Shown piece by piece: positions 778-28,281 of a stretch of DNA of 37,194 nucleotides; position 1 is the first letter of the stretch; each line of letters begins with the position of its first letter. Under the pieces are notes generated by a model. The model was not told where the DNA came from, made no database searches, and saw nothing but the letters and a program-made list of their open reading frames with translations. A program made the translations under genes and the position numbers. Source of the DNA: an uncultured archaeon (lineage in GTDB: Archaea > Thermoplasmatota > Poseidoniia > MGIII > CAYLMJ01); the NCBI GenBank assembly GCA_964434315.1, contig CAYSUX010000002.1, positions 1 through 37,194 on the forward strand, in the 5' to 3' direction.

Positions 778-1368
778 TCACTCGGGCTCGCCATAAAGCC
801 AGATCTCGTCACCCACATACTGTAATGTGAAGACCGCCTTGTCCTTGGCATCCTTGCTCGCCATCGACTCCCCTTCCTGCAAGGCCCAGCCCACTGCCAG
901 GGGTTGCCGGTTCCGTTCATCGCGTACCCAAACCGGTGTGCCGGGTCTGACGTTCGCAGCGGCCCCGATGACCCCGGGCGCCATGACATGGGCTCCGTTG
1001 CTCAGATAGGGTACCGCTCCCATGTCCACCTCGACCCAGTTGTTCCGGGGCTTGAAGGTCAATACCCCCCGCACGGTCAGGCAGACGCCGGAATTGGCAG
1101 GGTCACCGGCAGCATCTCCTTCCGCTTTGGCCACCTGTTCCAGTCCGTGAGCCAGCCTTGCCCTGCCGCCCTTGATGGTCTCCCCGACGAGCAATACCAG
1201 GATACGGTTCTCCTGCAGGAGGCATTGCCAGCCCGGACCCTGGGCCACTTCTATCTCTCCGGGGCTGAAGGCCAGACCAAGATTGTAGGAGTCGTTCAGC
1301 ATCTCGGCAAAGGTGCGGGCCTCCTTCTTGTTGACCGGATGACGGTGGCGCAGGGAGATAGTGACCAT
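778..1368 (-). CDS. PUA-domain RNA-binding protein (archaeal pre-PUA + PUA type)
   Basis: The C-terminal block VDMGAVPYLSNGAHVMAPGVIGAAANVRPGTPVWVRDERNRQPLAVGWAL matches the PUA consensus (D.GA..f...GA.VM.PG...G..V.v......plAvG.a). Confidence 0.65.
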   Translation of the reverse strand: MVTISLRHRHPVNKKEARTFAEMLNDSYNLGLAFSPGEIEVAQGPGWQCLLQENRILVLLVGETIKGGRARLAHGLEQVAKAEGDAAGDPANSGVCLTVRGVLTFKPRNNWVEVDMGAVPYLSNGAHVMAPGVIGAAANVRPGTPVWVRDERNRQPLAVGWALQEGESMASKDAKDKAVFTLQYVGDEIWLYGEPE

Positions 1369-1410
1369 GGATAGGGCGAATCCGTTCCCAACTAAAGGTT
1401 AACGGCCCGC

Positions 1411-1431
1411 GACCCGAGACCCGAGACCCGC
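1411..1431. repeat. heptamer tandem repeat (GACCCGA)x3 in the divergent promoter region between the PUA gene and ugd
   Basis: Read directly: gacccga gacccga gacccgc. Confidence 0.9.
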
Positions 1432-1464
1432 AAGGGCCAAATAGCCTGTGGATATCCACCGGCC

Positions 1465-2910
1465 ATGCGCGTATCAGTCATGGGCACCGGCTACGTTGGC
1501 CTGGTTTCCGGCGTGGCCCTGGCCGAGCATGGCCATCAGGTGGTCTGCCTGGATGTCATTCCCGAGAAGATCGAGACCCTGAACAGGGGCGTCAGTCCCA
1601 TCTTCGAGCCCGGCCTCGATGAGCTACTGGACCGCCATGTGACCGCCGGGACCCTCAAGGGTTCGCTGGATATCGAAACCGAGATCGCCGCCTCGGATAT
1701 CACCTTCATCTGCGTGGGCACCCCCAGCCGACCCGACGGCTCCATCGATCTGGCCTACATCGAGCAGGCCAGCGCCAGTGTCGGTCGCGCCCTGGCCAAG
1801 AAGGCTCCGGATTCCTATCACACCGTTGTCGTCAAATCCACCGTGGTGCCGTTGACCACCGAGACCGTCGTGGGTCCGGCCGTGACCGAAGCCTCGGGTC
1901 GTGTTCCGGGGAAGAACCTGGGTCTGGTGATGAACCCCGAGTTCCTGAAAGAAGGGGCCGCCATCGAAGATGCCATGAACCCGGACCGTATCGTCATCGG
2001 CGCCGGCGACGAGCACGCCCGCAAGATAATGGATGAGCTCTATTCCCGTTTCCAATGCCCGGTGCTCCATACCGATCCGCGTACCGCCGAGTACATCAAG
2101 TACGCCTCCAACGCCTTTCTGGCGGTCAAGATAAGCTTCGCCAACGAGCTGGCTAACGCCGCGGAGGCCTGGGGCATCGACTGGCAGATCGTGGCCGAAG
2201 GTATGGGCCTTGACTCCCGTATCAGCCACAAGTTCCTGGTCCCGGGGGTCGGTTTCGGTGGCTCCTGCTTTCCCAAGGATGTCCGGGCCATCCAGGCGAA
2301 GGCCAATAGTGACGGGCATCCCTCCCGGGTCCTGGCTGCTGCCCTGGAAGTAAACGAGGTCCAGCCGGCCCGGGCTCTTGAGCTGGCTCTGGAAGCCCTG
2401 GCCGCCGCTACTGCCCCCGCCTCCTCCACCGCCCTGGTCGAGGCCGCCGCCCCGGACCCTAGCGCCACCACCGCTGACGCCACCGGCCTCAAAGGTTGCA
2501 AGGTGGCCCTGCTGGGTCTGGCCTTCAAGCCCGATACCGACGATGTGCGAGAGACCCGGGCCCTGCCCATCGCCCAGGCCCTGACCGCGGCCGGCGCCCG
2601 GGTCACGGCCCACGATGTGGAGGGCACCGAGAACTTCAAGGCCCTGGTCAGGGAGAAACTGGCAACAGATGGAAAGGCGGGCGAACTACCCCTCCGGTAC
2701 ACCGACGACCCCGAGGTCGCCCTCAAGGACGCAGAAGTGGCCATCGTCCAGGTCCCTTGGACCATCTACCGTGAACTGCCTGCCGTCAGATGGGCCGAGC
2801 TGATGTCCGGACCCAGGGCCGTCATCGACTGTCGCCGGGGACTCGATTCCCAGGCTTTCGAGGCCGCCGGGCTGGTGTATCGGGCGATCGGGTTCGGGCG
2901 GCCTTGTTAG
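1465..2910 (+). CDS. ugd: UDP-glucose/GDP-mannose dehydrogenase family protein (UDP-glucose 6-dehydrogenase-like) with an Ala/Thr/Ser-rich insert
   Basis: N-terminal Rossmann motif VMGTGYVGLVSG, catalytic-Cys motif GFGGSCFPKDV, and C-terminal GLAFKPDTDDVRE. An extra low-complexity linker (LAAATAPASSTALVEAAAPDPSATTADA) precedes the C-terminal domain. Confidence 0.88.
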   Translation: MRVSVMGTGYVGLVSGVALAEHGHQVVCLDVIPEKIETLNRGVSPIFEPGLDELLDRHVTAGTLKGSLDIETEIAASDITFICVGTPSRPDGSIDLAYIEQASASVGRALAKKAPDSYHTVVVKSTVVPLTTETVVGPAVTEASGRVPGKNLGLVMNPEFLKEGAAIEDAMNPDRIVIGAGDEHARKIMDELYSRFQCPVLHTDPRTAEYIKYASNAFLAVKISFANELANAAEAWGIDWQIVAEGMGLDSRISHKFLVPGVGFGGSCFPKDVRAIQAKANSDGHPSRVLAAALEVNEVQPARALELALEALAAATAPASSTALVEAAAPDPSATTADATGLKGCKVALLGLAFKPDTDDVRETRALPIAQALTAAGARVTAHDVEGTENFKALVREKLATDGKAGELPLRYTDDPEVALKDAEVAIVQVPWTIYRELPAVRWAELMSGPRAVIDCRRGLDSQAFEAAGLVYRAIGFGRPC

Positions 2911-3022
2911 CCCGGCTTTCCTACGGCCGGGTGGTGGTGGGGGCTCGAGGGTACACTGCTTTCCCTTTCAATTCTAGGTAATCTACATTCATCAGTATTA
3001 ATCTGCGGCTTTTTTTGCAATT

Positions 3023-3053
3023 AGACACGGATTTCACAGATTACACGGATTTT
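3023..3053 (+). repeat. array A: three phased 9-bp units (CACGGATTT CACAGATTA CACGGATTT)
   Basis: Read directly: agaCACGGATTTCACAGATTACACGGATTTt. It is a near reverse complement of array C at 4144-4172. Confidence 0.85.
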
Positions 3054-3120
3054 ATTATTTATGAGGGGAGGATTGCAAATCTAGCTTACGCTGACCTGTT
3101 TGAGGTTCTTATGGAAAATA

Positions 3121-3183
3121 AGACACGGATTTCATAGATTTAATTAAGAAAAATCTGTGAAATCAGTATGTTAATCCGTGTCT
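3121..3183. repeat. array B/B': imperfect palindrome built from forward and reverse 9-bp units
   Basis: AGACACGGATTTCATAGATTT (3121-3141), a 9-nt spacer, AAATCTGTGAAATC, a 9-nt insert, then ATCCGTGTCT (to 3183). Confidence 0.8.
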
Positions 3184-3475
3184 ATAATTCTGAAGCCTTA
3201 GCGCGTCTGCTCTGTCCAGTGGCGGCAAGCCTGCTCCGCCCAGAATAGATTAATCGGGACATGTCCTGTAAATACCTTTTAAGGCCAAGCCGAGGAGACT
3301 AGCGGAGCTTGGTAGCAATGAAAACTCCAAGCACGAAGCACGACCAAGCCATCTATAGCTCCTCCTCACAAAGACAGCTACACGGCCCTGGCGGCTTGAC
3401 CGCGTTGGGCAGCGGGGCTCACGAAGAATCCCGTGATGTTTGACACTGAAGTTTGATGAAAGTCATCCCAGCTAT

Positions 3476-4072
3476 TCATAATTGGCCCGACTCGTCTAAT
3501 TTTTCTACTAATAAACTAGCTAGAACCAAATGATGTAGGGCTCTTTCAGGACTAATAACAATGTTTTCATGTGCTTTTGGGTTTCGGATACCACTCATTG
3601 CCCCCGCAAAGAGATACATATAACCTCGCTGAATAGATTGGCCAGTTTCTGTAGTAAGGTCGTCAAGTACAATTATTGGTTTTTCAGGTTTAAAAGCTGA
3701 AAACATCAAGTCCTGACCATCCTTCTCTACTCCAGTCTTGTTACGATATAATCTCTTTACAATCATATTAATTTCTTTAAAAGATGCCTCAACTGAATCT
3801 GCGAATTCACCATTAGTGAAACGTTTTTTTGACACATCACAAACTTTCGTGTGTATTATATCCCAAACACTATTAAACTGCACATCTATTGAGTTCTTTG
3901 CGTCAATTTTTTCAATGTTTAAATTCCAAATTCGTCCGTCAGTTAAGAAATTGAAACTAGTCTCACACTTAACGCATACTCTTTGCTCTGCGATCTTTAT
4001 TCTAAGATCATTCGAGTTTTTGTAGAATCCCTGTGGAGTTCCACATTCTCGGCAATACGCTAATAATAGCAT
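3476..4072 (-). CDS. zinc-ribbon + HEPN-domain protein (TIGR02391 / Hypoth_Ymh-type), predicted RNase/toxin-like
   Basis: N-terminal CRECG...CVKCE (4 Cys). The C-terminal GAMSGIRNPKAHENIVISPERALHHLVLASLLVEKLD contains the R-x4-H HEPN motif in the sequence context of the TIGR02391 family. AT-rich codon usage. SD-like GAAGGTGG lies upstream of the ATG. Confidence 0.65.
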   Translation of the reverse strand: MLLLAYCRECGTPQGFYKNSNDLRIKIAEQRVCVKCETSFNFLTDGRIWNLNIEKIDAKNSIDVQFNSVWDIIHTKVCDVSKKRFTNGEFADSVEASFKEINMIVKRLYRNKTGVEKDGQDLMFSAFKPEKPIIVLDDLTTETGQSIQRGYMYLFAGAMSGIRNPKAHENIVISPERALHHLVLASLLVEKLDESGQL

Positions 4073-4143
4073 AGAGTTACCACCTTCATCCCTTAAAATC
4101 TTCTATGATAACGTTATAATATCTTCGATTTCATTAACACTAT

Positions 4144-4172
4144 AATCTGTGTAATCCGTGAAATCCGTGTCT
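4144..4172 (-). repeat. array C: three reverse-orientation 9-bp units
   Basis: AATCTGTGTAATCCGTGAAATCCGTGTCT, an inverted partner of array A. It lies ~70 bp upstream of the HEPN gene start. Confidence 0.85.
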
Positions 4173-4235
4173 AATTTCCCACTTACACACCAGTAAACAT
4201 AGTGTTTCAAGATTCAATGTCATTAATTTAACCGC

Positions 4236-4247
4236 GAAATCCGTGTC
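4236..4247 (-). repeat. array D: single reverse unit (GAAATCCGTGTC) just 3' of the GxxExxY gene
   Basis: Read directly. It lies 6 nt from the stop codon at 4253-4255. Confidence 0.6.
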
Positions 4248-4252
4248 AAATA

Positions 4253-4624
4253 TTAATCTAATATTTTCCTCCTCACCTCTACGGAAGGACCAAAGTTAAT
4301 CAGCAATCCTATTTCAATCCCGGTGGCTTTAAGATAATTAACCAGTTGAACCTCATGGATTTCAATTAACTGTCTGACGGCCTTTAATTCCAAAATAACC
4401 ATATCCTCAACGACAATATCAGCGATGTAATCTCCAACAACATGGCCTTTGTACTTTACAATGACTGGCTTTTCCTTTTCAGCCTTCAATCCTATAGCAT
4501 TCAATTCGATACAAAGTGCATTTTGATATACTTTTTCTAGAAAACCATAACCCAATTCATTGTGAACAGTGAAAGCTGTCCCGATTATCTTACCAGTCAA
4601 ATCCTCATGTTTTAAATCACCCAT
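4253..4624 (-). CDS. GxxExxY protein (PD-(D/E)XK nuclease superfamily, TIGR04256-like)
   Basis: Has the GFLEKVY (GxxExxY) motif and the nuclease core D-x12-ELK (DYIADIVVEDMVILELKAV). About 123 aa, typical for the family. SD-like GGAGGG lies upstream. Confidence 0.8.
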   Translation of the reverse strand: MGDLKHEDLTGKIIGTAFTVHNELGYGFLEKVYQNALCIELNAIGLKAEKEKPVIVKYKGHVVGDYIADIVVEDMVILELKAVRQLIEIHEVQLVNYLKATGIEIGLLINFGPSVEVRRKILD

Positions 4625-4937
4625 TTGCTACCCTCCACTTCAATCCGCATCTAATTCACTCCGAGATAGCCTTCGCTGGTCCGGGCACCCCTCTTATCAC
4701 TCCATCCATCAGCCACGTCAAGGGTCAATTCAGGCGTGCCGGGAACCGCAACCGGTTCGGTGGTGTTCGTAGTGGCGCCCATCGTGGTCTGGGCGCGGTA
4801 GTCGGGCATACGAGGCTGAGGAGCTGAAGAGGTCAGGGGTCAAAGGTGTTTTGGATAGCACCCTCGAAAGTTCACGATAGCTATTGCCTCTCAAGTTGGC
4901 TGATGGCAGAACAGGCGTGAGGGTGCCTTGGAATGTA

Positions 4938-5006
4938 AGACACAGATTTCACAGATGATATGGATTCTGGTTAAATATAATCTGTGAAATCCGTGAAATC
5001 CGTGTC
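4938..5006. repeat. array E/E': imperfect palindrome of forward (2) and reverse (3) 9-bp units
   Basis: AGACACAGATTTCACAGAT (4938-4956), a 22-nt spacer, then AATCTGTGAAATCCGTGAAATCCGTGTC (4979-5006). Confidence 0.85.
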
Positions 5007-5099
5007 GAAATTTCTTATTTTGTAACCGATCGACATGGCTACTCTACTCACCGGTCAGTCCAGTTTCTCCAGGTCCCGGAAGGCCTGGTACGACGGACC

Positions 5100-5648
5100 T
5101 CACTCCCATCGATGGTGGGCCGGGTGGCCCTCCTCCACCGCCACGAACAGACCTTCGCCGGTGGCCGTTATCTCGCCTTCGGCCTCCACTGCCATCTCCA
5201 CCTTCACCTTCGGGTCATCGATGCTGACGACCTTACTGGTGATACGCAAAGGCGGGCCGTAGGGCGTTGGCCTCAGGAATCGGACAGAATAATGAGCTGT
5301 GACAGTGCTGGGCATCTCGGCGTCCGGCGAATCTGTCAGGCCCCGGGCGTCCAGCAGGGCCACGGCGGCGGTCCAGTTGCCATGACAATCCAGCAGCACC
5401 CCCAGGATACCACCGTTGATGGTATCGCCAAATGCCTTATGGTGAGCCGCGGGTTGAAAATCGCAATTGAGACCCGTTCCTTCCTTTAAATATGGTTCGT
5501 CGGGAAAGCGATGACTCTTGATCCGGAGGCCCAGTTCATTGGCGGGTCCGCAACCAAAGCAGATCCCGTCGGGACCGTATCGGTCCTGCATTGACGCCTT
5601 TGTGATCGATGTCTCTTTGATCATGGACTGGAAAGATGATACCCCCAT
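5100..5648 (-). CDS. PaaI-family (hotdog-fold) thioesterase
   Basis: Has CFGCGPANELGL near the N-terminus and INGGILGVLLDCHG (the hGG...D hotdog motif). Confidence 0.7.
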   Translation of the reverse strand: MGVSSFQSMIKETSITKASMQDRYGPDGICFGCGPANELGLRIKSHRFPDEPYLKEGTGLNCDFQPAAHHKAFGDTINGGILGVLLDCHGNWTAAVALLDARGLTDSPDAEMPSTVTAHYSVRFLRPTPYGPPLRITSKVVSIDDPKVKVEMAVEAEGEITATGEGLFVAVEEGHPAHHRWE

Positions 5649-5759
5649 TTGATGGTTACCACCGATCCGGACCTCTTTTAATTATTGGTCATTCATCGAC
5701 CATCGACATCGCATCGGCCATCGACCCCAAGGCTAATAAACTAGCCATAATTTCAAACA

Positions 5760-7850
5760 GTGACCATTAACTGGCTGATGTCCATGGCCGAGTTGACAGC
5801 AGAGAACCACGAGAACGCAGAAGCCCAGTCATCCCCATCTTCTGAAGATGGTGATGGAACGGTTACCGATCTCATCGAAAATGGCTATGATGAACTCATC
5901 GAACCCGCAGTCCCGAAGCCGGAAGAACTGCTGGAAGAGACCTCCGAGAGCATGGATGGCATGGATGATGTGGAGTCCGGTTCGTCTGGTTCGTCTGGTT
6001 CGTCTGGTTCGTCTGGTTCGTTCGAGGACCTTTCGGTGGAAGGGGGAGCCTCCAAACCACTGGAGATCGAGCTTCCATCCGCAGAACCCGAAACAGAGAT
6101 GGCCAACCAAGAGGGGATTGTACCACCCGAACCGGAGCCCCTGGGACTGGCCCACACAGTGGAGGTGACCCAACAACGGAAGCGGTACGATCCCTGGGCC
6201 CGACTGGCGATCCTCGAGGAGTCCCTGTCGCTGATAGCCCTCCTGTCCATCGCCCTGCTGGCCTTCACATTCCTGATCCTGTTCAAGTTCAGTACCCATT
6301 CGAACATCGATAATTCGCTGGTGTTCAACATCATCACCATCGGTGTCAGCATGGCCTGGGCCCTGTTCGCCATCCTGGGTTGCGGCTATCTGATGTCCAG
6401 GCCCCTGCTCGAGCGGGTCGATGCCGAATGTGGCAGGCTCTGTACGAATCTGCGTCAAACCGCCCTGGTCCTGATACCTCTGGGTTTACTCCTGGGTCTG
6501 GCCGGGTTGTTCATCGAACAGGACTTTCTGGGCCCCCTGGGCTTGGGTCTGCTGACCGCGACCCCCCTTCTGGCCCTCCAGGGCCGGGGAATGATACCCA
6601 AACGGGCCTGGCCTCCCGCCACCCTGATCACCCTGGGCGCCATACTGTTGGGTCCCGGGGTCTGGGAGGCCGGAACTCTGCTGGGTTCCGATACCGCGGT
6701 GTGCGAGGCGGTCACCGCCCTCATGTTACTGACCGGGGGAGCAATGGTGATGGGAGGCGCCATAGCCATGCGCCATCCCAATGATTGTCTATTCCCCTGG
6801 GTGCTCGGTGCTGTCATCCTGGCCGGTGTGATCGGCCTGGGCATAGGAGATAATTTCGGGATCGGGACCATGCTGGCCGGAGCCGGCGGAGGCCTGTTGA
6901 TCGTCGGGGGCCTCATCGGCTGGCAGTGGCGAACCGGTGAGTTACTTCAGCGTTCAGCTATCATCGAGGCCGGAAAGGAAGCCATGAACCAGGGTAGACC
7001 CGTGAAGGCCCTAACCAATTTCGACCTGGCCTTCCGTCTGGCATCCCGGGACGGTATGTTGCTCAACGAACCCCGGCTCTGGGCCCTGAAAGGGGCTGCG
7101 CTATCACAGCAACGCAAGTACCGGCGAGCCCTGGTCTTCCTGGGTGTGGCTTTGGAGCTGGACCCCACCGATGAACTGGTCTGGTACGAGCGAGGCAAGC
7201 TATATGGCAGCCTGAAGCGATGGGAAGGGGCGATAGAATGTTATTCCAGAGCCGTTTCCTTGCGCCACGATTACGTCGAGGTCTGGCTCGCCCTGGGCGA
7301 GGCTCATCTGAAGGTCAACGCCAACCAGGAGGCCCAGGCCGCCTTTGGTCGCATAACCCAGTTGAACCCCAGGGATATCAAGGGCTGGCTGGGGCTGGGA
7401 CGGGCCAATGCAGCCCTGGGTCAGGTACGTCAGGCGGTCCAGGCCTTTGACACGGCCAGCCGGGTGGACCCCGGCGCTGTGAGCCCCTACATGGCCAAGG
7501 CCCAGGTCTACTACTCCCTCAACCTGTGGGAGAAGTCCCAGCAGGCCTACGAGATGGTCATCCACCTCGATCCGAAATCGGCCGAGGGGTGGTGGAAGAT
7601 GGCTGGCTGTTACCTGGAGTTGCAACAACCCCAGATGGCCCTGAACGCTCTCAACAATTTCATCGACCTGGAGCCAAAGAATGTGAATGGATTGCTACGC
7701 AGGGCCGCTCTACATTACGATGAGGAGGAGTATGGCGAGGCCGTTTCCGACATCCATCTGGCCATCGAGATCGAACCTGACAACGAGGCGGGCCAACAAT
7801 TGAAGAAGGTTGTTCTTAGCCACCTCGACAGCCGGGGGAAGTGGCATTGA
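5760..7850 (+). CDS. polytopic membrane protein with an acidic N-terminal region, an (SGS)n repeat and C-terminal TPR repeats
   Basis: Roughly 8-10 hydrophobic helices in the middle. The C-terminal ~270 aa contain repeated 34-aa W/Y..LG.....g....A...f..a..ldP patterns (TPR). GTG start at 5760, with alternative ATGs at 5778 and 5784. Confidence 0.6.
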   Translation: MTINWLMSMAELTAENHENAEAQSSPSSEDGDGTVTDLIENGYDELIEPAVPKPEELLEETSESMDGMDDVESGSSGSSGSSGSSGSFEDLSVEGGASKPLEIELPSAEPETEMANQEGIVPPEPEPLGLAHTVEVTQQRKRYDPWARLAILEESLSLIALLSIALLAFTFLILFKFSTHSNIDNSLVFNIITIGVSMAWALFAILGCGYLMSRPLLERVDAECGRLCTNLRQTALVLIPLGLLLGLAGLFIEQDFLGPLGLGLLTATPLLALQGRGMIPKRAWPPATLITLGAILLGPGVWEAGTLLGSDTAVCEAVTALMLLTGGAMVMGGAIAMRHPNDCLFPWVLGAVILAGVIGLGIGDNFGIGTMLAGAGGGLLIVGGLIGWQWRTGELLQRSAIIEAGKEAMNQGRPVKALTNFDLAFRLASRDGMLLNEPRLWALKGAALSQQRKYRRALVFLGVALELDPTDELVWYERGKLYGSLKRWEGAIECYSRAVSLRHDYVEVWLALGEAHLKVNANQEAQAAFGRITQLNPRDIKGWLGLGRANAALGQVRQAVQAFDTASRVDPGAVSPYMAKAQVYYSLNLWEKSQQAYEMVIHLDPKSAEGWWKMAGCYLELQQPQMALNALNNFIDLEPKNVNGLLRRAALHYDEEEYGEAVSDIHLAIEIEPDNEAGQQLKKVVLSHLDSRGKWH
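5979..6023 (+). repeat. in-frame 9-bp tandem repeat (GGTTCGTCT)x4.9 encoding SGSSGSSGSSGSSGS
   Basis: Read directly. Confidence 0.9.
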
Positions 7851-8905
7851 CCTTCCAATTGAGGGTCGTCCATCCCCTCTACATAACCGGCAGTACCGAC
7901 GGGGAGGCCATCGCCGAGCGTTTTCTTTGCGATATCGGTTACATCCCCCCCGGCACCGGGCAGAGGCTGGAAGGAGGCGCCCGGAGCTCGGCCGGATTCA
8001 AGCTCTTCTATCAATGCCTGGCAGCCTTCCCTCTTCGTAGTTGGACCGCTGCCGAACTGACTCCCAAGGTAGGCGCCACACCGGCGACCATCTATCGTCA
8101 CCTGCTCCGATTAAGGGAGTTGGGGCTTGTGGCCGAGGAGGCCCAGCAGCGGTATCGTTTCTGGCACCATTCACTGACAGAGGCCTGGGAGGGGGTCGAA
8201 TGCCACGCCCGGCTCTGCCAGCGAAACTATGGCAAGATCATCGACCGCATCGAGACCCTTATCGGTGACACTTCGGCAATTCCAGGTTCGGCCCATAATA
8301 CCCCGGATTCCCAGGATGCTCAAGATGCCTCGGATACCCCGGATACCCCGGATACCCCGGATACCCCGGATACCCCGGATAGTCCCGGTCGATCAGAAGG
8401 TCAGGAATACCCTCTTGCCGCACCCCCCGGTACCTTCAATCTCACCCTCACCGAGCTCGTTCCCTTTTCGGAGGCTCCCGTTTTAGCGACCAACGAAGCC
8501 GTAACCCTTCTGGAACGATTGCTATTGGCCTGTGGCTATCTTGATCGCAGGGGTGGCAAGGTGGCCTCGGACATCCCCTTTCGCCTGTTCAACGACTGGC
8601 TCCTGAACCGCCGCGACCGGGTCTGGACCGCCGATGAGCTGGCGGTGGCACTATCCACCAGTCGCCCCACGGTCTATCGCCACCTGAACAGATTGGAGTT
8701 GATGGGCTGGTTGGAGAAGGTCATTCTCAAGGAAGGTCATCCACGTATCACCGGTTTTCGCCTGAAGGGAGGCAGCCTGAGCCTGGCCTGGAGGAAGATC
8801 GAGGATAAATTGGAGCTGGGACTGCGGGGCTACCGAAAGGCTATAAATCAGTTGGCCGGTCTGGCTCATTCCCCACAGGAGCAACAGGAGCAAGACCATG
8901 GGTAA
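7841..8905 (+). CDS. tandem winged-helix (two wHTH modules) DNA-binding protein with a (DTP)n linker
   Basis: Internal duplication: WTAAELTPKVGATPATIYRHLLRLRELGLV versus WTADELAVALSTSRPTVYRHLNRLELMGWL (ArsR/TrmB-like recognition helices). The GTG start overlaps the upstream stop. Confidence 0.6.
   Translation: MALTFQLRVVHPLYITGSTDGEAIAERFLCDIGYIPPGTGQRLEGGARSSAGFKLFYQCLAAFPLRSWTAAELTPKVGATPATIYRHLLRLRELGLVAEEAQQRYRFWHHSLTEAWEGVECHARLCQRNYGKIIDRIETLIGDTSAIPGSAHNTPDSQDAQDASDTPDTPDTPDTPDTPDSPGRSEGQEYPLAAPPGTFNLTLTELVPFSEAPVLATNEAVTLLERLLLACGYLDRRGGKVASDIPFRLFNDWLLNRRDRVWTADELAVALSTSRPTVYRHLNRLELMGWLEKVILKEGHPRITGFRLKGGSLSLAWRKIEDKLELGLRGYRKAINQLAGLAHSPQEQQEQDHG
8332..8385 (+). repeat. in-frame 9-bp tandem repeat (GGATACCCC)x5 plus one diverged unit, encoding (DTP)5
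   Basis: Read directly. Confidence 0.9.
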
Positions 8906-9188
8906 AACCGAAACCAAGACACTGGAGTTGACCACCGGCTCGCGCTACCGGATCACTTCTTTGAGTTCCCGCGACCACGCTGTCGTCTCTTCTGGCACCT
9001 TCAAGGGTTACATCAGCATCGCATCCGATGAGGGTATGATAATGGAACTTGACGACACCCACGAGAAGCTCAAGAACAAGCAACGGGTCGTCCCGGTTCA
9101 CATGATACTGTTCATCGATATTCTGGAAGCTCTCGAACCCGAAGAGGACGAGGAATCCCGCAAGGACACCGAGCGTTACCTTTACTGA
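8898..9188 (+). CDS. small hypothetical protein (96 aa, acidic C-terminus), translationally coupled to the wHTH gene
   Basis: Its ATG overlaps the upstream stop by 8 nt. Protein-like composition. No family recognised. Confidence 0.45.
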   Translation: MGKTETKTLELTTGSRYRITSLSSRDHAVVSSGTFKGYISIASDEGMIMELDDTHEKLKNKQRVVPVHMILFIDILEALEPEEDEESRKDTERYLY

Positions 9189-9219
9189 TCCATCTCCCCT
9201 TTCCGGGGGCTGTAACAAA

Positions 9220-10617
9220 ATGACCTCAAACTCCAAGGCACCTTCAATAGAACCTGAGAATCAGATTTCGAGCCCGGACACCAAAGGGCCGATGCCACTG
9301 GAAGCTCTCCATCCGGCAGCCACAGTGGTGCCCTACCCGTTCCGACTCCTGGCAGGCAAGCGGGTGGCCCTGGGCCTCACCGGCTCCATCGCGTCGGTCA
9401 AGGGCGTGGAGCTGGCTCGAGAATTGGCCCGTCACGGAGCCGAGGTCATCTGCCTGATGAGCGAACCGGCCTGCAAGATAATCGGCACCCAGGCCATGGA
9501 ATTCGCCACCGGCCGTTCGCCTATCACCGAGATAGCCGGCCAGGTCGAGCATGTGACCCTGGCTCGCCCTGGTGGCTGTGACCTGTACCTGATAGCTCCC
9601 TGTACCGCCACGACCCTGGCTCGCATCGCGTTCGGCCTGGGCGAGGGTCCGGTGGCCCTTGCCGCCTTGGCCCTTCTGGGTGCCAGCCACAAAGAAGGTG
9701 TCACGGTCCTGAAGGATGGGCAGCCTGTCGCTCCAGATCCTGCGGGTAACGAGCCAGGAGACCCGCCGGTCCTGCTGGCATTGTCGATGGATGGCTCCAT
9801 GGCGGCCCATCCGGTGGTCAAACAGAATCTGGCCCTGGCCAAATCACTGGGTTGCCATATCATCCCCTCTTTGATGGAAGAGGGAAAGGCCAAGCTACCG
9901 GGGATCGAAACCCTGGTCGCCCATTCCCTGCGCCATGGCGGCCCCCGGGATTGGGAAGGCCGCAAGGTGCTTGTGGTCGCCGGCTCCTCGTCGGAAACGG
10001 TTGACGGTGTACGGGTCCTGACCAACCGCTCTTCGGGTCGGACCGGCATCGCTCTGGCCCTGGCCCTGTTCGACCGAGGCGCAGAGGTGGAACTGTGGTA
10101 CGGTGATTCCCCGACACCTGTACCCGAGCACCTTCTGGCCCTGCGCTTCAGCTCGGTGAACGATGTGGTCGGCCTGGCTGAACAGACTGCCACAAGCTGT
10201 GTCGGAGCCCATTGGGATTGGGTCTTCGTACCCGCCGCCCTGGCTGACTTCGTTGTCGAGGGCGCCAAAGCCGCCGCCAAGACCAAGATCGATTCCCATG
10301 AAGCCGAACGACCCGAGATCGTACTGGCACCCGCCCCCCGGCGCCGCGCGCCCCTGCGCCCCCTGGCAAGGAAGCTTGTCGGTTTCAAGTTGGAAGTTGG
10401 AATGACAAAGAAGGAGCTGATCGATCGAGCCAAAGCCAAGCTTCAACCCGATGGTCCTTGCGACCATGTCGTGGCCAACCTGGCCGGCAAGGCCCTGGGA
10501 GGCGAGCAGACCGAGGTCATCCTGGTCGGGGGTACCGAAAAGGGGATAATTGCCGAACTGAACGGTCCCAAGATGGCTGTGGCCCACGGCCTGCTGGAAA
10601 TCCTGGGTGATAGCTGA
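9220..10617 (+). CDS. coaBC: bifunctional phosphopantothenoylcysteine decarboxylase / phosphopantothenate-cysteine ligase
   Basis: N-terminal flavoprotein motif GLTGSIASVKGVELARELARHGAEV. C-terminal DFP motif LTNRSSGRTGIALA. Confidence 0.85.
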   Translation: MTSNSKAPSIEPENQISSPDTKGPMPLEALHPAATVVPYPFRLLAGKRVALGLTGSIASVKGVELARELARHGAEVICLMSEPACKIIGTQAMEFATGRSPITEIAGQVEHVTLARPGGCDLYLIAPCTATTLARIAFGLGEGPVALAALALLGASHKEGVTVLKDGQPVAPDPAGNEPGDPPVLLALSMDGSMAAHPVVKQNLALAKSLGCHIIPSLMEEGKAKLPGIETLVAHSLRHGGPRDWEGRKVLVVAGSSSETVDGVRVLTNRSSGRTGIALALALFDRGAEVELWYGDSPTPVPEHLLALRFSSVNDVVGLAEQTATSCVGAHWDWVFVPAALADFVVEGAKAAAKTKIDSHEAERPEIVLAPAPRRRAPLRPLARKLVGFKLEVGMTKKELIDRAKAKLQPDGPCDHVVANLAGKALGGEQTEVILVGGTEKGIIAELNGPKMAVAHGLLEILGDS

Positions 10618-10694
10618 TGCGCCTCGCCGTAGCCCACTCCCTATCCAACGAGCCCGGAGGTACCATAGCCGAGATAGGCCGGCGATCTCGCTAG
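10617..10694 (+). pseudogene. orphan copy 1 of the C-N hydrolase 5' end (MRLAVAHSLSNEPGGTIAEIG...stop)
   Basis: ATGCGCCTCGCCGTAGCCCA closely matches the intact gene start at 11605 (ATGCACCTCGCCGTAGCCCA). Its ATG overlaps the coaBC stop (TGATG). Confidence 0.6.
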
Positions 10695-10767
10695 ATCGGC
10701 TCCCGCCTCCTACAGCTTCCCGATGGCGGGGCCATGATCCTTAATCCCGTCCTCCTCTACAGCCCTC

Positions 10768-10854
10768 ATGTACCTCGCCGTAGTCCAGACCCCGGTGAAA
10801 CCAGGTGGTGTGGCTACAGACCTGGCCTCTGCCTCACAGGCCCAGTACTCATAA
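10768..10854 (+). pseudogene. orphan copy 2 of the C-N hydrolase 5' end (MYLAVVQTPVKPGGVATDLASASQAQYS-stop)
   Basis: Compare with the intact N-terminus MHLAVAQAPVKLGNIAANLATARQLATQ. Nucleotide similarity runs for roughly 60-80 nt. Confidence 0.65.
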
Positions 10855-10924
10855 TCGAACCATCACCACCATATTCCCTCGCCATATCTTTATTAGAGAC
10901 CCTGGAGTCTAATCCTTGAGACCC

Positions 10925-11149
10925 ATGCCTTCGATGGAGCAGATTTGGCGCGACCATCCCCGCCAGTGGCTGGCGGTAAAGGTGACCGAGGAAGACCCCC
11001 AGACACATACAGCAAAGGCCGGTGAGGTGGTGGCCGAGGCCGAAGGCTATGATGAGATCTGGGACAAGGTAGCCTCATTGAAGGTAAAGGAACTCTTTGT
11101 ATTCTTCTCGGGTCCACCCCTGAAAGAGGGTTACGTGGCGGCCTTCTGA
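10925..11149 (+). CDS. small DUF5678-like protein, partner of the downstream retropepsin-like protease
   Basis: About 75 aa with the W.a.k...g.vva.a...del pattern. Its stop lies 2 nt before the next ATG. Alternative starts are TTG 10916 and ATG 10934. Confidence 0.45.
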   Translation: MPSMEQIWRDHPRQWLAVKVTEEDPQTHTAKAGEVVAEAEGYDEIWDKVASLKVKELFVFFSGPPLKEGYVAAF

Positions 11150-11151
11150 AC

Positions 11152-11580
11152 ATGGCTTTTCCTTTCGATCCCTCAGTACCGGTAATCCTCGTGGAGGTCA
11201 CGTTCCAGGGACCAGTAAGCCGACAGCGAGCCTGGGCGGTACTCGACACCGGAGCCAGCAAGAGCCTCATCCCCTGGCGTCTGGCCGAGCAGTTGGGTTA
11301 CGACCCGGCGGCCTCTTCAAAGCGAGGCCGCATGACCACTCCCAGCAGCACTGAAAGTGTACCCTTGCTACGGCTCGAAGCTTTGGAAGCTCTGGGGCAG
11401 CGAGCCGAAAATATCGAGGTAGGGGTCCACGACCTTCCAGAGCAGGCCCAGGTCAAGGTCCTTCTTGGTCTGAACTTCCTCAATGGCTTTTCTCAACTCA
11501 TCATTGATTTCAAAAGGGGGCGACTCACCCTCAATCCATCTGGCACTAACGTCTCCCATCTCCCCTCACCAATAGGCTAA
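11152..11580 (+). CDS. retropepsin-like (retroviral-type) aspartic protease
   Basis: Active-site motif AVLDTGASKSLIP (D-T-G-A-S) plus LLGLNFL near the C-terminus, typical of single-domain clan AA proteases that act as dimers. Confidence 0.7.
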   Translation: MAFPFDPSVPVILVEVTFQGPVSRQRAWAVLDTGASKSLIPWRLAEQLGYDPAASSKRGRMTTPSSTESVPLLRLEALEALGQRAENIEVGVHDLPEQAQVKVLLGLNFLNGFSQLIIDFKRGRLTLNPSGTNVSHLPSPIG

Positions 11581-11604
11581 AACCACCACTAGCCTGCCAC
11601 CACC

Positions 11605-12627
11605 ATGCACCTCGCCGTAGCCCAGGCCCCGGTCAAACTCGGGAACATAGCCGCCAACCTGGCCACCGCCCGGCAACTGGCCACCCAGGCCCGGGAGGCC
11701 GGGGATGGCGAACTGGACCTGCTGGTCCTTCCGGAGCTGTTCATCTCCGGTTACATGTTGCGTGACGAGCTTATCAGACTGGCAGAGCCATTACCGCCCC
11801 TGCCGAGCCTGTCATTTCCACCGAGCCTGCCTGCCAACAGCGATATGGATGTCATGGCTTCCAATGTCGGCGGACAGGATGGCGGCCAGAGTGGTGGCAT
11901 GGGTGGCATGGGTGGCTTGAATGGCCGGAAGGGGGTGAGCGGCGGTGCAGGCGTGAACGGCCTTTGGGGCTTCAGCCATCGCCAACCGGTAGCTGCCTCG
12001 GATTTTTCCTTTGGACCGACCATGTCCGGCTTGTTGGAGCTGGCATCCGACGAGGGTTGCTACATCACCTGCGGCCATATCGAACATGAAGGCCGGGGAC
12101 TTTTCAACGCCGGTGTCATGGTGGGTCCTGAAGGCTATATCGGTCACTACCGCAAGATGAAGCTCCCACATACAGGACCCTTCGAGGAGCCCAGCTTCTT
12201 TGGCGAGGGCGGCCCCGACCAGAGACCGGTCTTCAGCCTGCCGTTCGGTATCGTGGGTCTGCAGGTATGCTACGACATCCACTTCCCATTGCCCAGCCTG
12301 CGATTGGCCCGGGACGGAGCCCAGCTTATATGCAATCTCTCGGCGGCGCCCAACACCTCCCGTTATGTCTTCGAGCGGTTGCTACCGGCCAGGGCCATCG
12401 AGACCTCCTGCTACTGGGCCTATGCCAACAACGTGGGAGTTCAGGAGACCATGATGTTCTGGGGCGGGTCACAGATACTGGACGCCAGGGGTGATGTGAT
12501 GGTCAAGGCTCCGTACAACGAGCCCGGTGTGGCCGTGGCTAAAATAGACCTGTGTGATGTGGAGTCCGTCCGGGGCTTTCGCCCGACCCTGATGGACGGG
12601 GCCGGGGATCGGCTGAACTTTCCCTAG
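11605..12627 (+). CDS. carbon-nitrogen hydrolase (nitrilase superfamily) with a ~80-aa Gly/Met/Pro-rich insert
   Basis: Glu-Lys-Cys triad contexts LVLPELF, HYRKMKLP and LQVCYDIHFP. The insert runs PPLPSLSFPPSLP...GGQDGGQSGGMGGMGGLNG. Confidence 0.8.
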   Translation: MHLAVAQAPVKLGNIAANLATARQLATQAREAGDGELDLLVLPELFISGYMLRDELIRLAEPLPPLPSLSFPPSLPANSDMDVMASNVGGQDGGQSGGMGGMGGLNGRKGVSGGAGVNGLWGFSHRQPVAASDFSFGPTMSGLLELASDEGCYITCGHIEHEGRGLFNAGVMVGPEGYIGHYRKMKLPHTGPFEEPSFFGEGGPDQRPVFSLPFGIVGLQVCYDIHFPLPSLRLARDGAQLICNLSAAPNTSRYVFERLLPARAIETSCYWAYANNVGVQETMMFWGGSQILDARGDVMVKAPYNEPGVAVAKIDLCDVESVRGFRPTLMDGAGDRLNFP

Positions 12628-13158
12628 GAGGGTCAATCGGGATGGCATAGGGGCGGGCGCACCATCTCCTTTAGGGTTCAGGGCCTGGCTACGGCTATGG
12701 GCGTGAGGGGCTCGCCATGGCCATATGCTACGCAAAGCGAGCCCGGCTTCGGCCTGAGCAATATCAATAATGATATTTTTTATATTTATTAAATATTGAT
12801 TTTTCACTATATATAAAGGTTTCCGACCGTGATAATGAACCTAGGTTGTCGTCGACAAACTTGGATATAAAAGGCTTGCGATAAAAAACCGATTTTTATA
12901 TATATGAGATACGTTAATAGATATATTGACACTATGTCAACCAATGCCAACGAACCTAGCCCGAAAACATCCGCGACCATGGCTTCCACCCAGCTTGCCA
13001 CATCTCTGGTCCTCTGGAGGCAGTGGCTGAACGCAATGGAGAAAGGAAGCCTCACCTTCAGGACCGAGGTCTGGACTTGAACAGTATGCTCGCCATCCAT
13101 TCAAGTTACAGGAGAGTCAGGCTGACCCGGATCGCAAACTCAGAACTGAGCGTTGGAT

Positions 13159-13521: not shown

Positions 13522-13581
13522 TCAGATGTTTGATAGTCAGATGTTTGATAGTCAGATGCTTGGTAGTCAGATGCTTGATAG
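13522..13581. repeat. 15-bp tandem repeat x4 (TCAGATGTTTGATAG, with the last two copies carrying C/G variants) in the ATL/MFS divergent intergenic region
   Basis: Read directly. It begins 10 nt upstream of the ATL start codon. Confidence 0.9.
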
Positions 13582-28142: not shown

Positions 28143-28281
28143 CCGGTAGAGTGCATTCTCACTGAACCGACACAGAAAGCTTTTCAAAGCAATAGCACTA
28201 AGGTAAAGCACCGGGGGTTCGAACCCTCGTGGCGAGACGCCGACGGGTTGAAAGCCCGGCGCATTTCCACTCTACCACGGC
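28143..28281. other. tRNA-like imperfect palindrome (possible decayed tRNA / att remnant), not a functional tRNA call
   Basis: GGTAGAGTG arms at 28146-28154 and, reverse-complemented, at 28269-28277. Central GGGGGTTCGAACCCTC T-arm-like hairpin. The minus strand has an anticodon-arm-like GGG-CTTTCAA-CCC. No 7-bp acceptor or D-arm can be drawn. Confidence 0.25.

Follow-up and report, generated by a model that had tools for sequence, protein, structure and literature searches.

Three copies of a hydrolase gene start at an archaeal coaBC junction suggest repeated insertion, most recently of a two-gene retropepsin cassette

The junction between coaBC and a C-N hydrolase gene was analysed in a 37,194-nt stretch of DNA from an uncultured archaeon (contig CAYSUX010000002.1 of GenBank assembly GCA_964434315.1, positions 1 to 37,194 of the forward strand; hereafter the window). 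The start of the hydrolase gene occurs there three times in succession, and the second and third copies enclose a cassette encoding a small DUF5678-like protein and a retropepsin-like aspartic protease (Table 1). We favour, with somewhat better than even confidence, a history of two or more insertions at the hydrolase start by handle-anchored recombination, in which a short piece of host sequence on the incoming DNA would serve as the homologous anchor and the cassette would bring no recombinase of its own. Judging from the hydrolase relatives, the host is a Poseidoniia-type (Marine Group II/III) archaeon; a scan of the genome contigs gave one distant relative only.

Three exact matches to ATGNNCCTCGCCGTAGYCCA were found on the + strand, at 10617 (copy A), 10768 (copy B) and 11605 (copy C, the true hydrolase start), compared with a chance expectation of 0.10 matches on average; none of 100 shuffles reached four matches. 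The presence of three hydrolase 5′ ends at this junction, proposed in a preliminary description made from the letters of the DNA alone, was thus borne out together with its finer anatomy: the coaBC TGA (10615-10617) overlaps the ATG of copy A at 10617 (TGATG, 10615-10619), and the open reading frames (ORFs) opened by copy A (10617-10694) and copy B (10768-10854) end after 25 and 28 codons, respectively. Nucleotide alignment of the three copies gave identities of 19/20 (A-C), 18/20 (B-C) and 17/20 (A-B) over the first 20 nt, of which 17 positions are invariant throughout; the same region encodes the most conserved part of the hydrolase protein, and no core common to other loci was seen in it. 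The likeness of copy A to the hydrolase 5′ end is gone past ~24 nt. Copy B is 73% identical to copy C over 67 nt, with 30/34 matches in nt 1-34 and 18/32 in nt 35-66, and the codon differences between the two are 4 synonymous and 10 non-synonymous. In a six-frame translation of the interval, copy B was matched at profile positions 1-24 (E=0.006) by a hidden Markov model (HMM) of the hydrolase family built without the window's own protein. The closest match of copy B is the window's own hydrolase, and a lineage-specific GTA valine codon is common to A, B and C.

The arrangement was recovered at 99.7-100% identity in five or more independent samples, namely in an ENA scaffold (L002), two JGI scaffolds (L108 and L109) and Logan contigs of runs X1-X3, with each junction spanned by single contigs. 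The triple-copy arrangement is genuine and no assembly artefact, because the identical structure appears in separate assemblies of different samples. No Rfam RNA was found in the interval, the sole tRNA lies far off at 28205, and no sequence of the locus was found in the RNA runs. A candidate fourth repeat at 10867-10886 (CACCACCAT...CCTCGCC) was rejected, as it lies within the conserved promoter region of the cassette and its pattern is not above chance.

Comparison of the junction in related genomes revealed its ancestral state. In four related Poseidoniia-type lineages (L003, L008, L012 and L016), coaBC is followed by the hydrolase gene with no insert, the stop and start codons overlapping by 1 nt in L003 and L008 and being separated by gaps of 5 nt in L012 and 54 nt in L016, in agreement with the earlier suggestion that the two genes were once translationally coupled. 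The window is collinear with the relatives from ~780 to 12627. As the junction of the relatives is uninterrupted, the 988 bp between coaBC and the hydrolase gene represent a lineage-specific insertion and, judged from this alignment, copy A occupies the former position of the real hydrolase start.

How far the repeats extend was assessed with L104, a diverged relative whose hydrolase gene is ~72-76% identical in nucleotides. The 32 nt before the ATG of copy C match the 32 nt before the L104 hydrolase ATG at 25/32 positions and are clearly orthologous; as this spacer is common to the window and L104, it predates their split, and at least one of the events is therefore old. At least 19 nt before copy B also align with the sequence upstream of the L104 hydrolase (shuffle p about 0.03), although direct comparison of the B-upstream and C-upstream sequences was not significant (p=0.91). 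Consequently, the likeness of B and C does not seem to begin exactly at the ATG, as had been claimed, and their repeat probably spans about -19 or -30 to about +70 or +90 relative to the ATG.

The interval between copies A and B contains a segment, 10646-10680, that matches the 3′ end of the hydrolase gene (12516-12550) at 71%, and the collinear alignment continues to 10733. CCCGATGGCGGGGCC in the interval resembles CCCTGATGGACGGGGCC in the 3′ end; at the peptide level, NEPGGTIAEI resembles NEPGVAVAKI of the hydrolase, and EPGGTIAEI resembles the family motif EPGGAVAEIDL in P0008. The match ranks among the top few of 1834 window segments (p about 0.01-0.03) with an unrelated segment tying it, an HMM test of the interval as a hydrolase 3′ end was not significant, and comparison with L104 gave p=0.07. 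The assignment of the interval as a hydrolase 3′-end remnant is accordingly suggestive only.

Table 1 Features of the coaBC-hydrolase junction in the window.
Feature	Position	Strand	Evidence or remark
coaBC (phosphopantothenoylcysteine decarboxylase/synthetase)	9220..10617	+	Pfam DFP 4.5e-31, Flavoprotein 9.8e-20; syntenic with L003, L008, L012
Copy A, orphan hydrolase start coupled to coaBC	10617..10640	+	19/20 to C; at the true-start position of relatives
A-B interval, putative scar of older event, possible hydrolase 3′-end remnant	10641..10737	+	Suggestive similarity only
Copy B, orphan: ~19+ upstream nt and hydrolase codons 1-24/28, TAA at cassette edge	10749..10854	+	HMM, L104 alignment
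Inserted cassette: TATA-like box (~10889-10896), 74-aa gene, protease gene	~10855..11573	+	Promoter aligns with L018, L022, L023 cassettes
74-aa DUF5678-like partner protein	10925..11149	+	Upstream of protease in 68 loci
Retropepsin-like aspartic protease, 142 aa, LDTGAS motif	11152..11580	+	Pfam Asp_protease_2 1.5e-14
Copy C: 32-nt spacer and functional hydrolase 5′ end, right-hand repeat	11573..11690	+	Spacer orthologous to L104 nt 1-32
Functional C-N hydrolase, nitrilase superfamily, 340 aa	11605..12627	+	Pfam CN_hydrolase 5.1e-49; orthologues 59-63% identical

Of the DUF5678-like/retropepsin pair named in the preliminary description, the protease half was confirmed, scoring 54.9 bits against a cut-off of 24.3 bits for Asp_protease_2, and the LDTGA motif is invariant across the protease alignment. 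The protein also matches the PADLOC profile PDC-M08B (PDLC04405) with E=1.6e-7, its residues 1-125 aligning to positions 1-123 of 127; compared with its homologues, it has lost the stop codon and gained a 14-aa C-terminal extension into the flank. The assignment of the partner holds for its family, since DUF5678 (PF18929) was matched by 4 of 24 aligned homologues (best E=1.8e-5), but not for the window's own 74-aa protein, which gave no PADLOC match at E<=1 and no Pfam match, DUF5678 included, even at E<=10. Its structure predicted from the single sequence was poor (pLDDT 59). Natural single-chain DUF5678-like/retropepsin fusions were found in P0323 (203 aa) and P0327 (196 aa), which argues for interaction of the 74-aa protein with the protease. 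In both fusions, the small-protein part ends in the conserved GY(A/V)A(A/M)F tail and the protease domain follows directly, a placement that hints at a propeptide, inhibitor or substrate relation. Judged from its architecture (overlapping small genes, own promoter, neighbourhoods rich in toxin-antitoxin genes, and the fusions), the cassette may be a toxin-antitoxin-like or defence-like selfish module. Nothing was found in the literature on DUF5678/retropepsin pairs or on PDC-M08. The protease ORF was skipped by automatic gene callers in three public assemblies, a 63-aa antisense ORF being called in its place (924-1115 in L002 and 3965-4156 in L108, equivalent to ~11368-11559 on the - strand of the window), so that the protease of this population is missing from protein databases.

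The mobility of such cassettes was examined at 80 further loci encoding relatives of the protease, dereplicated to 33 independent contexts with at least 500 nt on both sides. The nearest homologous pairs, at other loci of related archaeal contigs, share 47-61% amino-acid identity. Flanking direct repeats scored >=20 in 17 of the 33 contexts and >=25 in 15, whereas cross-locus controls had their 95th percentile at 13.5 and peaked at 24, and scores in inverted orientation were <=15.5; of 44 shifted pseudo-positions in the same contigs, 3 reached a score >=20. Among the tight cases, 60-160 nt separate the left repeat from the small gene downstream, the right repeat begins 0-25 nt past the protease stop, and the repeats are spaced 700-960 nt apart, the corresponding distance in the window being 837 nt. 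At a restriction-modification (RM) locus, the pair lies between direct repeats of 168-203 nt that are 79-82% identical; one forms the 3′ terminus of the adjacent gene, and the other is its orphan copy.

All-against-all comparison further revealed near-identical cassettes sitting in non-homologous flanks, as in the pairs L056/L094 (99.3% identity over 705 nt), L050/L063 (97.4%, 721 nt), L040/L056 (96.6%, 737 nt), L056/L078 (95.8%, 743 nt) and L027/L029 (90.8%, 727 nt). We take this as direct evidence, at the level of sequence comparison, that a unit of ~0.72-0.75 kb is mobile.

Many of the flanking repeats are gene ends, such as the last 12 codons of guaA (L090), the last ~40 codons of an amidohydrolase gene (L077), a transporter end (L033), a methylase-like tail (L018) and the first ~30 codons of gmd (L056). 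The layout of the window, with an orphan fragment and an intact gene, recurs in L056 (gmd), L090 (guaA), L077 (amidohydrolase) and L111 (membrane protein), which upholds the earlier proposal of repeated insertion that regenerates a gene end. In L056, the order of an orphan gmd start (~30 codons), the cassette, a MazEF-like pair and the intact gmd gene mirrors the window, and the two copies of gmd, encoding a GDP-mannose dehydratase (3594-3683 and 5749-5841), differ at 11 positions in 27 aligned codons, all of them synonymous. Over six loci, codon differences between the repeats comprised 50 synonymous and 23 non-synonymous changes (p=8e-7 against an expectation of 40% synonymous), indicating that the orphans were once functional homologous ends and not neutrally decaying in-situ duplicates. 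The triple arrangement has a counterpart as well: L111, which comes from the same samples and is a contig of a related archaeon, contains a membrane-protein gene whose 3′ end (…GGEHFPVWFDNGEARCYRFVP and stop) is present at 746-827, 3886-3939 and 4733-4814, one copy being functional and two orphans, with a 3-kb island devoid of an integrase between copies 1 and 2 and a homologous cassette between copies 2 and 3.

Two further observations concern the borders at these loci. L017 and L018 are identical through the cassette and the orphan repeat and fully divergent exactly from the far end of the orphan (5575), past which L018 has an HsdR-like gene and L017 a 1001-aa gene, marking a recombination breakpoint at the repeat. 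In the flanks of L060, L078 and L056, which belong to one cassette-rich group of sediment genomes, there are 9-nt periodic repeats (AAACCAGAG AAACCAGAT… and AGACGCAAT AAACGCAAT…) and a multi-copy ~30-nt motif ending in CAACGTCCCC beside the cassette borders.

A recombinase, a core site or a vehicle was searched for in several ways. No Phage_integrase, resolvase or transposase family was detected by Pfam in the cassette or in the 37 window ORFs scanned, and no IntI among the latter. No integrase was present among the 25 commonest Pfam families of 144 neighbouring ORFs at the 80 related loci, where the only transposase family was DDE_Tnp_1 with two members; the commonest families there are those of toxin-antitoxin genes (MNT/HEPN, PIN and the like) along with housekeeping genes. 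Inspection by eye of the L060 repeat and the window gave no RYYYAAC/GTTRRRY pair of an attC site, no attachment (att) core or motif was shared among the repeats of 10 loci, conserved termini or inverted repeats were not found across cassette subfamilies, and no cassette relatives were found on viral contigs or plasmids.

The missing integrase, core and shared termini in these searches favour recombination run by the host through a homology handle, and we propose the following history, in which the recombination machinery and the order of events are inferred. In the ancestral operon, coaBC was translationally coupled to the C-N hydrolase gene. Two or more insertions of DNA at the hydrolase start would have followed, each recombination being anchored in the conserved first codons; a further copy of the start would have been supplied or generated by the incoming DNA itself, so that the resident start was pushed upstream as an orphan while the gene stayed intact downstream. 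The older event may have given rise to copy A (the native start, fused to coaBC), a scar of ~100 nt and the 32-nt spacer, and the younger event may have inserted the promoter-bearing module of ~0.72 kb, so that copy B now lies to the left of the module and the regenerated start C to the right. Having no recombinase gene, the module would be carried along with a short stretch of host sequence, in most cases the end of a gene, as its 'handle', and would integrate via host homologous recombination, either by a Campbell-type single crossover or by homology-facilitated illegitimate recombination. Supply of a recombinase in trans appears less likely, although sharp boundaries common to three contexts favour some defined mechanism. 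The start of copy C lies 24 nt past the protease ORF and is probably transcribed with the protease.

Several observations weigh against this history. About half of the contexts have no flanking repeat, and some of the flanking repeats do not derive from gene ends but are intergenic elements present in multiple copies. No near-identical copy of the window's own cassette was found elsewhere, recent mobility being seen in other subfamilies only, and neither excision joints nor an empty site were seen in the contigs of four DNA runs with a depth of 2-5x. The nearly identical cassette boundaries in three contexts are more readily understood if a defined site-specific mechanism operates than if the joins are illegitimate. 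At the window itself, the 4 synonymous and 10 non-synonymous differences between B and C fit a neutrally decaying in-situ duplicate equally as well as a displaced native end, and the weak resemblance of the A-B interval to the hydrolase 3′ end favours tandem gene duplication followed by deletion.

Such a duplication is the alternative that fares best, and we regard it as possible, if rather doubtful. The hydrolase gene with a few flanking bases would have been doubled once or twice in situ, with no targeting of gene ends; the first copy would have lost its interior to give A, with its 5′ end fused to its 3′ end, the cassette would have replaced most of the second copy to leave B, and the third would survive as C. 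This account is attractive in that the segment of the A-B interval resembling the hydrolase 3′ end stands in the right order and spacing, with the EPGGTIAEI peptide matching the motif of the family, and in that A, B and C share the GTA valine codon, copy B is nearest to the window's own hydrolase and the B-C codon changes look neutral. The 3′-end similarity is, however, not formally significant by the tests described above. The spacer upstream of B and C, which a tandem unit predicts to recur in the DNA downstream of the hydrolase, showed no significant similarity to it. In addition, the duplication leaves the synonymous-biased orphan gene ends at six other loci and the L111 triple unexplained.

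Site-specific elements, the mechanism put forward in the preliminary description, appear unlikely. Elements that carried an integrase of the tyrosine or serine type and recombined at an att core inside ATGNNCCTCGCCGTAGYCCA would have accreted in tandem and decayed to integrase-less remnants of the cis-mobilizable element (CIME) type, A, B and C then being attL, an internal att site and attR. The first 20 nt are indeed kept in all three copies, the B-C conservation is concentrated in nt 1-34 (30/34 against 18/32 in the later part, p=0.005), copy A similarity ends right past the putative core, and the sharp cassette boundaries common to three contexts would be expected. A regenerated target with a displaced fragment is, according to the Islander report (PMC4383910), typical of islands borne by integrases. 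The searches for an integrase in the 37 window ORFs scanned, the cassette and the commonest neighbour families of the 80 loci were negative, however, as were those for relatives on viral contigs or plasmids and for a motif common to the repeats of different loci. Moreover, the B-C gradient equals the gradient of conservation among the orthologous proteins (MxLAVAQAPVK), making an att core unnecessary; the hydrolase homology of copy B continues past the putative core, where the arm of an element should be unrelated; and the core would lie at the 5′ side of the repeat, whereas the 3′ side is expected for a 5′-end target. If the A-B interval does include a hydrolase 3′-end remnant, a history of duplication and deletion would account for it no less well than an att site.

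A role of A and B as true small genes, or as leader peptides (upstream ORFs) that regulate the hydrolase or the cassette, is very improbable: each has a reading frame that begins with an ATG, and the translation of A is coupled to that of coaBC, but no such ORFs occur in the relatives, the sequences are hydrolase fragments without Pfam matches, and the B-C changes are mostly non-synonymous. An assembly or chimera artefact hardly deserves any weight, since repeats can mislead assemblers but ENA, JGI and Logan assemblies of different samples agree, with each junction inside single contigs.

Beyond this locus, we tentatively propose, with less than even confidence, that the DUF5678-like/retropepsin pair represents an undescribed class of recombinase-less mobile cassettes in archaea and bacteria, which would spread by means of a gene-end homology handle and whose insertions could stack at the same end; in a bolder variant, one of the two proteins of the pair would act in the DNA transaction. 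How small toxin-antitoxin or defence modules move with no transposase or integrase is a long-standing gap, for which the present locus and the 80 related loci provide a testable footprint. If the handle model is true, the ends of housekeeping genes (guaA, gmd and the C-N hydrolase gene) would be landing pads across lineages, and orphan gene ends could be used for the systematic mapping of insertions. For the host, the insertion has uncoupled a conserved coaBC-hydrolase translational unit, and the hydrolase probably now depends on the cassette promoter.

The surroundings of the junction show several other features. The hydrolase carries a Gly/Met/Pro-rich insertion of ~44 aa (11787-11971) that is missing in 296-aa orthologues, and the L104 hydrolase has a different insertion at the same place, pointing to a hypervariable loop. 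Synteny with the relatives stops directly after the hydrolase stop codon, where the relatives have HAD, AhpC and tRNA-deacylase genes on the - strand and the window has an AT-rich region with a doubtful 97-aa ORF (12628-13100), followed by an MGMT-like DNA-binding gene, an MFS gene and an MMPL gene; a 15-nt unit (TCAGATGTTTGATAG) is repeated four times in tandem at 13522-13581, between the MGMT-like and MFS genes. Upstream, a second small island at 2910-5070, missing in the relative L008, contains a Hypoth_Ymh gene (3476-4072, - strand) and a PDDEXK_3 nuclease gene (4253-4624, - strand). Each of these genes is bracketed by copies of a palindromic element, consisting of GACACGGATTTCACAGATT and its complement with 9-nt periodic AATCCGTGA repeats, at 3023, 3121-3190, 4136-4177, 4232 and 4938-5012, and the 37-nt repeats at 4141-4177 and 4976-5012 are 92% identical.

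The arrangement shares properties with several known systems. Among islands and prophages at gene ends, e14 and phage 21 integrate at icd and carry a replacement gene end. In such cases, as in the window and its related loci, the target is regenerated, the displaced fragment marks the other border and repeated insertion leaves several copies; the displaced and regenerated ends differ mostly at synonymous sites, as do those of the six related loci taken together. Unlike them, the cassette is a unit of ~0.75 kb for which no integrase and no common core were found, and its targets include the 5′ or 3′ ends of many protein genes as well as intergenic repeats, whereas most classical cases concern 3′ ends. 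For islands at tRNA and tmRNA genes, the Islander report (PMC4383910) catalogues the same outcome, with a regenerated target gene and a displaced fragment at the other border.

CIMEs and tandem accretion, known from the ICESt1/ICESt3 family of integrative and conjugative elements (ICEs), involve integrase-less DNA bounded by att-like direct repeats. The three repeat copies that bound two adjacent inserts in the window are reminiscent of them, but no parent ICE or integrase was detected, the older 'element' measures ~130 nt and the repeats have diverged (73-95%). Integron gene cassettes are likewise small units of one or two genes, often toxin-antitoxin genes, that have no recombinase of their own and are arrayed between repeats, and L060 and L078 look array-like; in contrast, neither IntI nor the R/L boxes of attC were recognised here, the cassette has its own promoter, and the repeats at the window and several other loci are ends of housekeeping genes rather than attC sites. 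With type II toxin-antitoxin modules, the cassette shares two small overlapping genes, an own promoter and MNT/HEPN, PIN and MazEF neighbours. With the PADLOC candidate system PDC-M08, it shares a protease that matches PDC-M08B over the full length, while the partner protein has no PADLOC match.

Finally, homology-facilitated illegitimate recombination and the Campbell-type single crossover are laboratory phenomena that predict variable boundaries, and we know of no description of either route as the routine vehicle of a natural cassette family. The boundaries of the present cassettes are fairly sharp rather than variable. Nevertheless, a one-sided homologous anchor of the kind used in these routes would explain the orphan native end, the hybrid regenerated end and the lack of an element-borne enzyme alike.

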